This document shows, one piece after another, positions 26,533 through 29,500 of a stretch of 64,000 bases of DNA (position 1 is the first letter of the stretch; the number at the start of each line of letters is the position of its first letter). Source of the stretch: Candidatus Gastranaerophilales bacterium (GTDB taxonomy: Bacteria > Cyanobacteriota > Vampirovibrionia > Gastranaerophilales > JAILCC01); NCBI GenBank assembly GCA_045598245.1, contig JAZLLQ010000035.1, positions 5,579 to 69,578 of the forward strand, read 5' to 3'. A model generated the notes under the pieces. It was given only the letters and a program-made list of their open reading frames with translations, was not told the origin of the DNA and did no database searches. The position numbers and the translations under genes were made by a program.

Positions 26533-29500
26533 TTAGTCAAGCATTTTGGTATTTATTCTGTTAAAATATTTGAAAAATACATCAAATGGTACATCTACAG
26601 TTTTATATGAGTCGTAAGGATTTTTTATAGTCACGGTTTTGTCTTTAGGATTAATACTTTCTATTGCGTATTGGTGAGAATTTGATAAACCGTATTTATC
26701 CTTGTCCTCTTGGGATACTTTAGGCGTATCATAGATAACGGTTGTCATTACCATGTTGTTTGTTTGAAGTTGACTGTATAGCGTTGACATTACGCTGTAA
26801 TCTGTCTTACCCTGAATACCAATGGTTTGGTCGCTGCTTTTCTTACCGTATAAATCATCAAGAACCTCGTGACCATATCCGCCGTTTACCCAATATTGAA
26901 TAGCCATATCCATATCGACATCACTGGCATTTGTTACCTTACCTGATGCTGAGATTGCTTTTGACAAAGCCTCACTGTAATCTTCTTTGATGTCTTTTGC
27001 CGATAATCCGCTATTGCTGACTTGAGCAAATTTTGCGAGTGCGTATGCCTGTTCAAGCATTGCAAGTCCTTTGCAAGTATCGGTTGCGTGGTTAGTGCCG
27101 ACATTTTCGGTACTGCTTCCGTTCTTGTACTTGCCATCTATTGCCTTGAGTTCACCGCCTTTAAATGTTACGGGATAACTTGATACTCCGGGGAATGTTA
27201 CCGTCATATCTCCATTAGAGTCTTCTTTGAACATTTGAAGAAGTTTTGCTCTGGCTGCCGGATTCTCCATTGAATCAATAAGTGTTGTTGCGGCAAAGAA
27301 ACAATCTTCAAGGCCGTTTTGTTGAACGAAGAACCTTTCTACCGGTGGGAATAACTCAAGATAAGTTTCCGCACTCATTTTTAACTCTACCATTTTACCC
27401 GAATCGTTGACGTATAATTTTCCGTCTTTTTCTGCTACCTCACCTGTTTTAGTCTTTGATGCCAATTCCGTAAGTGACATTTCTGAACCATCTGTAATCA
27501 TTTTGCTTTTAATATAAGCATCTTTACCTTCAGGTGCATTTTCCGCATCTGCGAGAATTTGTGCATCAGCTAAAATTTCATTATTAAAATCCGTAATTGA
27601 TGATGTCATCATTTCTTTTACATTGGACATGAAGTTGCCCCAAGTATCTTTTGCTTGTCCTACTTCAATAAGAACTTTTATTTGTTTTAACTTATTCAAT
27701 GCATCAGCAGTTGAACCGCAAGAATTTATAAATGATTCAATTTGCGTTGTTGATAAACCTACCTTATCTTTTATTTCATCACCTAATTTAGTTACTTCTG
27801 CTTTTACTTGTTGTTCTTTTAATTTTTCATCGTTAGCTTCTTCGTATGCTTTCAATTCAGCTTCGGTAATACTGCCGTTTTTATCGGTATCAATTGTTCC
27901 CAAGCCTATTTCAAGTAATTGTACGCTATCAGTAATATTCTTATTCAATTCTCTTGCAGCTTGTATCAACTGTCTTGCAAGAGCAGTAAATTCTTTTTTG
28001 CCGTCTTTGTCGGTTTCTATTAATTTGGAAACAAGTTTTTTAGCGTCTGAGATGACAGTTGAACTTGCATCAGGAGCAGACGGGTCAGGATTGCCTCTCA
28101 ATGCGGAAGTAATGTATGCCATTGTAACTTCCATATTGTAGTCTTTATCCGATTTGCTTCCTTTTGAAATTACTTGAGATGTTTTAGGATCTCCGTTATA
28201 TATTTTATCTTTGGAATCATTTACAATTGTTGAATTTGTACCTGAATCCCTGTTATATATTCTGTCTGCACCGGAACCACCGTCAATTCTCGCTTTATCA
28301 CCTGCGTTGATTAAGGCATCATCACCATCTCCACCTTGTAATTCAGAGTTTTGAGAGTAATTATATAAGTAATCATCACCGGTGCTGCCGTTAATTTTTG
28401 AATTGTCGGCATAGTTAAATACGGATTTCAAGGTTACATTTGAGTAAAACTTAATATCTGAACCTTCCATTTTTACAGCTGAGTTATCATTCGCTTTAAT
28501 GACAACAATTTTCATATTAGAAGCATTGATAGTCACTAAGTTTTTGTAGAATGAAGTTTTGACTGTATCAAAGTTGTCTTCATTAGAGTATGCACGGAAG
28601 GTTACTCCGTCAACCGTAAATTCTCTGAACAACTTATAATCAGGGTCATCACTCGGGAAGCCTTTCATTTTAATTATGTGTTCGGTATCGTCACCTTCTG
28701 AAGGAATAATTTCTTTAACGGTACCTTCTGCATAGTTAATGGAATCATCGCCATCTCCGCCGTCAATAGTAGCATCGTCACCATAGTTAACGATGGTATC
28801 ATTTCCGCCTTCACCGTTCAAGCGTGCATTTTTACCGTAGTTAACAATAATATCATCAGCATCACCTGCATTAATCACGCAGTTGTCGGCATTAGGATTG
28901 TTTTGAATATTATCGTTGCCGAAACTTCCGTTAATTGTTGAGTTTTTAGCGTTATTTGTAATAGTATCGGTTGTAACGGCATTAGAATTGAATTTTACAT
29001 TTTCACCATTAATAACAACATTCTTGCCATTTTCACCGTAACCCAATACATCTATTGTGCAATTTTTACCGTTAATATTGATAGAACCGTCTTTTCCTTC
29101 GGTAATTTCACAAGAGCCTTTACCTTTTAAGTATTTAATTTTGAAATTCATTCCGCCGATACTTGTTGATTTGGTATCATATTTGGCTTCTTCTTTATCA
29201 AAAGCAACGATTTTATCAACTGTTGTACAAATTTTTTCGCAAATTTCTCTGATTTGGAATAATCTTGATGTCTTTTGCTTAAATTCTTTATTCATTACAG
29301 ATACGTCATATCCTTTTTGTGCAATATGGAGTTTTAAGTATTCTGCCATATTGTCGATACTTGTTCCGTTTCTGTAATCTTCAATACAACCAATAATTGC
29401 TTGCTTTATTATTTCTTCATCTTCAGCAGTTAATCCGAATGATGCTTCTCTAATCATGGGAAGAATGACGCTGAACATGTCTTCTTCGGCTTGTTCAAGT

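Follow-up and report, generated by a model that had tools for sequence, protein, structure and literature searches.

A candidate calcium-gated calpain-type protease with internal RTX-type beta-rolls, an EF-hand pair and a conserved partner gene in Gastranaerophilales

What does a bacterium do with a large protease that carries RTX-type calcium-binding repeats in its interior, an EF-hand loop between these and its catalytic domain, and no recognizable export signal? The question is raised by a 64,000-nucleotide stretch of a Candidatus Gastranaerophilales bacterium (contig JAZLLQ010000035.1, positions 5,579 to 69,578; hereafter the window, meaning the whole stretch that was analysed), in which one gene on the minus strand encodes a multidomain protein of 1187 residues, P0001. 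Judging from its sequence and from structural modelling, we consider it probable, with moderate confidence, that P0001 is a calcium-gated calpain-type protease whose C-terminal core lies behind calcium modules, that it is paired with an orphan partner of 112 residues, and that it is not a classical substrate of a type I secretion system (T1SS).

Translation placed all of the peptides cited in an earlier, sequence-only reading of this DNA where that reading had located them, on the minus strand inside the open reading frame (ORF) 26533-30096. Seven relatives begin almost identically (MEI[LF]KVGDE), which backs the start codon, and P0002 is a full-length orthologue with 48% identity. AlphaFold2, run on the complete protein with an alignment of 21 sequences, gave a model with a mean predicted local distance difference test score (pLDDT) of 84.5 and a predicted template-modelling score (pTM) of 0.54. 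The model shows strands at 9-residue intervals, together with a helix-loop-helix and the fold of a calpain; a second model covers residues 1-310 alone (pLDDT 73.7). The gene, its domains and the partner gene are laid out as follows.

26533..30096 (-): whole gene of the multidomain calpain-like protease P0001, 1187 residues (ORF listing; stop codon included)
26536..27501 (-): calpain-type (C2-like) cysteine protease core, residues 866-1187, at the extreme C-terminus (motifs, profiles, Foldseek)
27760..28062 (-): EF-hand pair, residues 679-779, inside a helical region at residues 650-850 (PS00018, AlphaFold2 model, orthologue profile)
28162..28632 (-): RTX-like module 2, residues 489-645, an internal duplicate of module 1 (sequence, AlphaFold2 strands, profile matches)
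28702..29181 (-): RTX-like module 1, residues 306-465, a beta cap followed by a roll (sequence, AlphaFold2 strands, orthologue profile, Foldseek)
29182..29739 (-): beta-meander, residues 144-186, and five-helix bundle, residues 192-303 (AlphaFold2 secondary structure)
29740..29916 (-): acidic linker, residues 61-119, predicted to be disordered (pLDDT <50 in both models; length differs among orthologues)
29917..30096 (-): N-terminal domain (N-domain), residues 1-60, small alpha/beta with two short strands and three helices (conserved at the extreme N-terminus of a small subfamily)
26162..26500 (-): 112-residue orphan partner gene, 32 nt downstream of the protease gene (conserved adjacency)

The C-terminal protease core and its family

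The sequence-only reading had placed a protease domain at the C-terminus of P0001. This was borne out, and the domain is calpain-like by profile comparison, by its invariant residues and by Foldseek. Q926 is the predicted oxyanion residue and C932, H1141 and N1159 form the predicted catalytic triad, all four being invariant in an alignment of 20 family sequences (A3). The corresponding motifs read QQNGLEDCFF, HQYAIE and KNPYD in P0001, against QGxxGDCYF, HAYSIE and NPW in the family consensus. Three profiles were built only from orthologues of the protease, covering the beta modules (A11), the helical region (A12) and the C-terminal domain (A3), and the last of these matched the calpain-9 core with an E-value (E) of 2.3e-10 and with the QGxxGDC and HAYS...NPW motifs aligned. 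The top 12 Foldseek matches were all calpain structures, comprising 11 isolated protease cores and the m-calpain-calpastatin complex 3bow. The best of them, the calpain-3, -1 and -9 cores, were found at E 4e-6 and a probability of 1.0, with a template-modelling score (target) of ~0.5 over ~319 aligned columns, and identity between the protease core and eukaryotic calpains was 10-15%. Modelled with a pLDDT of 86-98 over most of its length, the domain is predicted to adopt the two-lobed CysPc fold (PC1 + PC2). Since the protease is a calpain (C2) homologue, the calcium modules in front of it can be reframed as probable regulators of a calpain-type enzyme.

Searched against Pfam, NCBIfam and PADLOC as a whole and as six sub-fragments, the protease gave sub-threshold matches only; Pfam Peptidase_C2 (PF00648) scored 19.0 bits on the isolated domain and 14.6 bits on the whole protein, the cut-off being 23.8. 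The Pfam hidden Markov models that the sequence-only reading had proposed as a check on its RTX and EF-hand assignments had a divided outcome: the single sequence failed their thresholds, a failure that the same reading had named as grounds for refutation, whereas the orthologue-only profiles and the AlphaFold2 model support both kinds of module. Because these profiles match solved RTX and EF-hand proteins, and AlphaFold2 agrees, we attribute the Pfam failure to divergence of the domains and not to their absence. Among the relatives of P0001, 27 of 52 match Peptidase_C2 at E <=0.001, the best at E 3e-10.

An exhaustive HMMER scan with residues 830-1187 retrieved 528 representative clusters at E <=0.001. 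A word-indexed search with the protease domain found 3 proteins only, and a profile scan of genome contigs with the full-length protease alignment found 0 relatives. Genomes with close relatives of the protease belong to Gastranaerophilales, 'Vampirovibrio', Melainabacteria and unclassified metagenome-assembled genomes from gut or rumen; the window itself, with 33% G+C and genes for a lipopolysaccharide heptosyltransferase and TonB, fits a diderm of a Gastranaerophilales-like group. Of 152 proteins, 123 end in the protease domain, which follows very diverse upstream architectures, and proteins of this kind reach 7,567 residues.

Giants of 2,000-7,567 residues (for example P0041, P0051, P0058, P0062, P0076, P0084 and P0172) combine the C-terminal calpain-like domain with a canonical EF loop at residues ~38-91. 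The extreme N-terminal motifs of the giants are conserved within sub-branches, with no signal peptide in any of them. A further member, P0029 (4,875 residues), has four tandem calpain-like domains in a single polypeptide.

The beta-rolls and the EF-hand pair

RTX nonamer repeats with a period of 9 residues had been claimed for the middle of the protein. RTX-type modules are indeed present there, and it is the period that needs correction: Gly and hydrophobic residues in the repeats have a dominant period of 18 residues, not 9. Repeat block 1 spans residues 381-455 (nt 28732-28956) and repeat block 2 residues 561-616 (nt 28249-28416). Module 1 has four GGxGxD-type turns at residues 390, 410, 428 and 446, all along one edge, with N-Y-G-x-x-A on the opposite edge in two of the four turns; module 2 has three GGxGxD turns at residues 570, 588 and 606. 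All seven turns sit on every second nonamer, and the intervening nonamers mostly read N-[YA]-G-x-x-[AS]-x-U-x, without the calcium-ligand Asp, which is kept in the single exception NNPNADNCV. Since the calcium-binding Asp is replaced in alternate nonamers, each roll would have one calcium-competent edge, and we infer that both rolls are one-edged, like the second block of Serratia LipA. From the seven stacked canonical turns (four and three in modules 1 and 2, respectively), we estimate some five calcium sites in the rolls. Five nonamers in the protease fit the relaxed pattern G[GSNDA]xGx[DN]xUx, compared with 0.13 expected, and this number was reached in 0 of 20,000 shuffles.

The family models responded unevenly to these repeats. 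With Pfam HemolysinCabind, whose cut-off is 23 bits, block 2 scored 18.0 and block 1 scored 8.6; NCBIfam Ca_rpt_SMc04171 matched partially at residues 563-627 (E 5.7e-8), and PROSITE PS00330 had no match in the protease. Compared with solved structures, profile A11 matched the RTX domain of CyaA (7usl_C) at E 3.6e-14 and residues 491-544 of Serratia LipA at E 1.9e-7, the best lipase match, along with further CyaA fragments and the MIS38 lipase. In the AlphaFold2 model, strands of 3-4 residues recur every 9 residues at residues 387-454 and 567-615 with a decile-mean pLDDT of ~88-95, and Foldseek against the PDB returned, after the calpains, CyaA RTX751 (7usl_C) and the MIS38 and LipA lipases (2z8z among the matches). 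Both modules are thus predicted by the model to form parallel beta-rolls. Outside the calpains, the roll modules have their nearest relatives in proteins with Pfam HemolysinCabind repeats and no calpain domain.

One-edged rolls have known counterparts. In the second RTX block of Serratia marcescens LipA (2qua) and in the 19-residue repeats of Marinomonas MpIBP region IV (3p4g), the Asp is replaced in alternate nonamers, as in P0001 (PMC6891781), and the second LipA block is described as occupied by calcium on one side (PMC6891781). All three share one calcium-holding edge and an effective period of 18-19 residues, the occupancy in P0001 being deduced from sequence.

The textbook 12-residue EF-hand loop of the sequence-only reading also held up, through a PROSITE match, a helix-loop-helix in the model and a profile match to calbindin. 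The canonical loop, DTDKNGSITEAE (residues 736-747, nt 27856-27891), is the second of two; as DTDKNGSITEAEL it satisfies the whole of the PROSITE PS00018 pattern, in which positions 1, 3, 5 and 12 carry ligands, position 6 is Gly and position 8 is hydrophobic. A PS00018 match of any kind arose in just 1.9% of shuffles. Loops at the homologous position occur in P0002 (DTNKDGDITDTEL) and P0030, with D/N swaps at ligand positions, and the orthologue at locus L002 has the near-match loop DIDGSGLIFEDEL. The first loop, ETDKDGKKEFTA (residues 693-704), lacks the acid at position 12 and a hydrophobic residue at position 8 and therefore probably binds no calcium. In the model, helix 679-692, a loop and helix 705-717 are followed by helix 724-735, loop 736-744 and helix 745-779. 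Profile A12 aligned both loops with calbindin EF-hands (E 3e-6) and also matched Entamoeba CaBP (E 1e-5) and calmodulin (E 7e-4), while the Pfam models stayed under their cut-offs (EF-hand_7, 20.4 against 30 bits; EF-hand_6, 17.5 against 25; EF-hand_1, 16.9 against 25.4). The EF loop therefore belongs to a pair with one canonical site, which adds one site to those of the rolls. A chance origin of the repeats and the EF loop was ruled out by the shuffles and by orthologue conservation.

A role for calcium is further favoured by the recurrence of EF loops across the family. PS00018 loops are present in 19 of 148 representatives, compared with 1.7 ± 1.3 expected (approximately tenfold enrichment), nearly all at residues 38-91 of very large proteins, and a few of the 52 scanned members match Pfam EF-hand or Dockerin_1 models, the latter in two of the 52. 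These findings, together with the P0001 locus itself, contradict a 2015 survey which reported no bacterial calpain homologue with an EF-hand and regarded most such homologues as probably calcium-independent (PMC4631099).

Duplicated DxNxDG loops were also seen near the N-terminus of the calpain-family members P0044, P0047 and P0049, dockerin-type loops being unexpected in the Melainabacteria lineage.

The partner gene, the N-terminal region and the neighbourhood

The partner gene adjoins the protease gene on its downstream side in six loci, with gaps of 14-45 nt. In L001, L002 and L003 a homologue with ~50% identity follows the orthologous large gene after 14-45 nt, the copy in L004 is 32% identical, and L013 also has a partner. 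The large protein of L004 has no N-domain and no RTX or EF module, yet the partner is kept, from which it follows that the partner tracks the protease subfamily and not the repeats. Furthermore, the flanking genes differ between loci, making the protease/partner pair the conserved unit. No family was found for the partner in Pfam, NCBIfam or the PDB, and PADLOC gave two marginal matches only, DrmC (E 0.005) and PDC-M02B (E 0.006). More distant members of the family have no homologous small gene downstream. The most likely role of the partner is to bind the protease domain and so to serve as inhibitor, immunity-like factor or chaperone that keeps the protease silent in the producer.

We also considered whether the pair is a defence system, a reading that found no support: PADLOC returned nothing for the protease and only the marginal matches at E ~0.005 for the partner. 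No prophage or mobile-element genes were noted among the scanned neighbours, in which no search aimed at them was made. A scan of positions 24000-31300 for promoters and terminators gave counts no higher than those of shuffled sequence.

In a sub-branch represented by L007, L011, L012 and L014, calpain-like proteins of ~550-600 residues are followed by a conserved signal-peptide protein of 376-454 residues. This downstream protein, annotated as PF07907 YibE_F in L014, is a different partner from the 112-residue one. In the window, a 564-residue orphan with several hydrophobic segments (24328-26022, minus strand) lies directly downstream of the protease/partner pair; it is probably outside the unit, since L001 has DUF4330 and Wzy_C genes at the corresponding position.

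At the other end of the protein, the N-domain is modelled with a pLDDT of 82-95 over residues 1-60. A phmmer search with it matched only residues 1-~90 of P0002, P0032, P0036, P0034, P0031 and P0073 (alignment A6), a word-indexed search of 5.8 billion proteins with the N-domain profile added one further fragment, and a metagenome scan gave 0 relatives. The N-domain is therefore seen only on calpain-ended proteins and one fragment, and since these searches returned one fragment or nothing, they yield no evidence that it is a shared trafficking module. The beta-meander and five-helix region is common to P0002, P0032 and P0034 only, and the N-terminal 310 residues matched no PDB fold below E 0.1.

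Elsewhere in the window, an orphan at 59421-62522 (minus strand) encodes an acidic, low-complexity protein of 1033 residues rich in Ser, Thr, Ala and Gln, with no Pfam family; it lies where the AT skew is very strong (-0.40). The ORF at 5555-8146 (minus strand; 863 residues) has no Pfam family at E <=1e-5. On the plus strand, the ORF at 12695-15769 encodes 1024 residues in which a superfamily-1 helicase (AAA_11/AAA_12) is fused to a C-terminal REase_MTES_1575 nuclease-like domain, and the ORF at 47458-49323 encodes a GGDEF and HD-GYP-type (HD_5) protein, which indicates cyclic-di-GMP signalling in the genome.

Calcium gating, site of action and significance

How could these parts work together? 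RTX domains fold at ~0.1-0.2 mM Ca2+ and are random coil at cytosolic Ca2+, and folding of the roll is essentially irreversible (PMC6891781). By analogy, the rolls of P0001, binding calcium on one edge only at ~5 sites, would be unfolded at sub-micromolar cytosolic Ca2+ and would fold only on meeting high Ca2+, which would make protease activity or substrate targeting calcium-gated. The calcium modules would then take the place of the penta-EF-hand and C2-like domains of eukaryotic calpains, and the partner would hold the protease domain in check or chaperone it.

Several observations weigh against this proposal. The single protease sequence scores under every Pfam gathering threshold, the first EF loop of the pair is degenerate, and P0032, P0031, P0036 and P0034, more distant members of the subfamily, have no canonical loop. 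By eye, the intradomain calcium sites of eukaryotic calpain cores seem not to be conserved: the Asp of RTDICQG is Phe here (RFFVQQN), and some 30 residues are missing from the segment that follows NPW. E1077 does align with the Glu conserved in site 1. The core stops ~28 residues past the catalytic Asn. Calcium control of catalysis is deduced from the neighbouring modules only. In addition, the pTM of 0.54 makes the domain-domain contacts of the model unreliable, and the role of the partner, for which no family is detectable, is drawn from gene adjacency alone. Lastly, genome coverage here is 64 kb, and a T1SS may lie elsewhere.

This last point bears on the export of P0001. The sequence-only reading had stated that the N-terminus is not a Sec signal, that no T1SS genes appear in the window and that the layout is unlike that of a classical T1SS substrate, and we reached the same view on all three. 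The protease has no Sec signal or transmembrane segment (top 19-residue Kyte-Doolittle hydropathy 0.99), and signal-like N-termini occur in just 2 of 148 family representatives. No T1SS families were found among 33 Pfam-scanned ORFs of the window (the protease gene, two neighbours and 30 others), paired ABC transporter motifs (Walker A and LSGGQ) were absent from the window and 12 related loci except in SMC, and the called genes of L014 and L015, among the related loci checked within 10 kb, included no ABC transporter. The rolls are internal, the last of them ending near residue 645 with 540-570 residues between it and the C-terminus, which in the AlphaFold2 model is a strand of the protease fold. 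Thus, the repeats do not directly precede a C-terminal secretion signal, and the scanned DNA holds no cognate ABC/MFP/TolC genes. By comparison, LipA and MpIBP are T1SS substrates with rolls near a C-terminal signal.

It is conceivable that P0001 is a classical RTX exoprotein and that a T1SS encoded elsewhere in the genome recognizes the C-terminal residues of the protease domain. In diderms, large RTX proteins without a signal peptide are normally T1SS substrates (PMC3034196, PMC6891781), and placement of the last domain at the C-terminus shows strong conservation. However, the distance of the rolls from a C-terminus that is integral to the protease core, the lack of an ABC transporter in the 64-kb window or within 10 kb at 14 related loci, and the reported lack of a T1SS in gut Melainabacteria (Di Rienzi et al., PMC3787301) make the classical T1SS route unlikely, and we regard this explanation as very improbable. 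No positive evidence was found for any non-T1SS export route. For the calcium-gated protease that we propose, we nevertheless slightly favour, and only tentatively, a site of action outside the cell after non-classical release.

A separate observation concerns the ORF at 22999-23841 (plus strand), whose N-terminus, KKGFTIAEILLTLALIGIVAAL, resembles the prepilin motif of type IV pilins and pseudopilins and hints at a type IV pilus or type II secretion-type apparatus.

Two further explanations are somewhat less improbable. P0001 could be a calcium-alarm protease that stays in the cytoplasm, inactive with its rolls unfolded and its partner bound, and is switched on by Ca2+ influx after envelope damage or phage attack, in which case protease and partner would be the prokaryotic counterpart of calpain and calpastatin. 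The absence of a signal peptide or transmembrane segment, the rarity of signal-like N-termini in the family and the absence of secretion genes adjoining any family locus would all fit, as would the small co-transcribed partner that tracks the protease domain; EF-hands are typical of cytosolic sensors, eukaryotic calpains are cytosolic, and signal peptides are predicted in only 3 of 66 bacterial homologues (PMC4631099). The requirement of RTX folding for ~0.1-0.2 mM Ca2+ and its irreversibility are nonetheless better suited to a one-shot extracellular switch (PMC6891781), the non-calpain relatives of the rolls, with their HemolysinCabind repeats, are taken to be extracellular RTX-type proteins, some paralogues have dockerin-type modules, and PADLOC gave no defence family for the protease and only marginal matches for the partner. 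We see a cytoplasmic alarm protease as unlikely, though as the likeliest of the rival readings. Its most specific form, a true calcium-gated prokaryotic calpain system in Melainabacteria in which the EF-hand and RTX modules switch a cytoplasmic protease and the 112-residue orphan is a calpastatin-like inhibitor, is more doubtful still. Alternatively, P0001 could be a polymorphic-toxin-like effector, its variable N-terminal and central region delivering a calpain-like toxin domain into a competitor or host and the 112-residue gene encoding the immunity protein. The extreme C-terminal position of the domain in 123 of 152 proteins behind very diverse upstream parts, the small downstream gene that co-varies with the protease subfamily in six loci, and the several distinct extreme N-terminal motifs conserved in separate sub-branches are what such a system would predict; fusions of calpain homologues with WXG100, Tox-PL and deaminase modules have been recorded (PMC4631099), and Foldseek gave a weak match to a CdiA-CT toxin (8ssk_A, E 7e-3). 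On the other hand, the N-domain was never found on other C-terminal domains (one extra fragment, two scans empty), no known trafficking domain (PAAR, LXG, VgrG, TPS) was detected by Pfam or fold search, and the scanned ORFs include no type V, VI or VII (T5, T6, T7) secretion genes. Distant family members also lack a homologous small gene, some being followed by a YibE/F-type membrane protein instead. A toxin is accordingly a poor prospect in our judgement, although a better one than classical T1SS export.

Parts of this architecture have been described before. Rawlings (2015) lists Glr4140 of Gloeobacter violaceus (UniProt Q7NDU2) as eight HemolysinCabind repeats followed by a calpain domain and speculated on an extracellular function (PMC4631099). 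As this protein was already described with RTX repeats before the calpain domain and no signal peptide, the core of the export puzzle is already published. Like P0001, Glr4140 is a protein of the cyanobacterial lineage with RTX-type repeats N-terminal to a C-terminal calpain domain, and it poses the same export question. Compared by description only, its repeats pass the Pfam model, whereas those of P0001 are divergent with an 18-residue period; in addition, P0001 has a partner gene and none was reported for Glr4140 (PMC4631099). Porphyromonas gingivalis Tpr, in 2015 the sole biochemically studied bacterial calpain homologue (PMC4631099), is likewise a calpain-family protease of an anaerobe in an animal-associated niche; again by description only, it has no RTX or EF-hand modules reported in PMC4631099, and P0001 has both. 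Eukaryotic classical calpains (CysPc-C2L-PEF; calpain-1, -3 and -9; 6bjd, 1tlo, 2p0r) share with P0001 the core fold, the Gln/Cys/His/Asn set and the company of EF-hand calcium modules. They differ in having a penta-EF-hand, where P0001 has a single EF pair N-terminal to the core, and in having a C2-like domain and a small subunit, both of which P0001 lacks. A 2022 study of cyanobacterial calpains makes no mention of EF-hands or Melainabacteria, the top-ranked literature for calpain paired with Melainabacteria, Vampirovibrionia or Gastranaerophilales does not mention calpain, and the EF-hand pairing and the partner gene were not in the literature searched. The layout of P0001 is therefore unusual but not unprecedented, and what is new beyond the known RTX-calpain layout is the EF-hand pair, the lineage-specific N-domain and the conserved orphan partner.

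Taken together, our results describe a family, from the non-photosynthetic sister group of cyanobacteria, in which EF-hands, RTX-type rolls and dockerin-like loops accompany a calpain core. RTX-like rolls do not always identify a T1SS substrate; they can also act within a protein, in regulation or folding. Bacterial calpains have been little studied, and the protease and its partner form a compact pair testable in vitro, relevant to specialists in calpains and in bacterial calcium signalling. Since such large proteins are kept in the small genomes of gut Melainabacteria, an important ecological role is suggested. If the cytoplasmic reading with a calpastatin-like inhibitor were true, it would amount to independent or ancestral bacterial calpain/calpastatin signalling in a sister lineage of the oxygenic cyanobacteria. 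More broadly, the family bears on the proposed bacterial or cyanobacterial origin of calpains and on whether their calcium control is ancestral or convergent.

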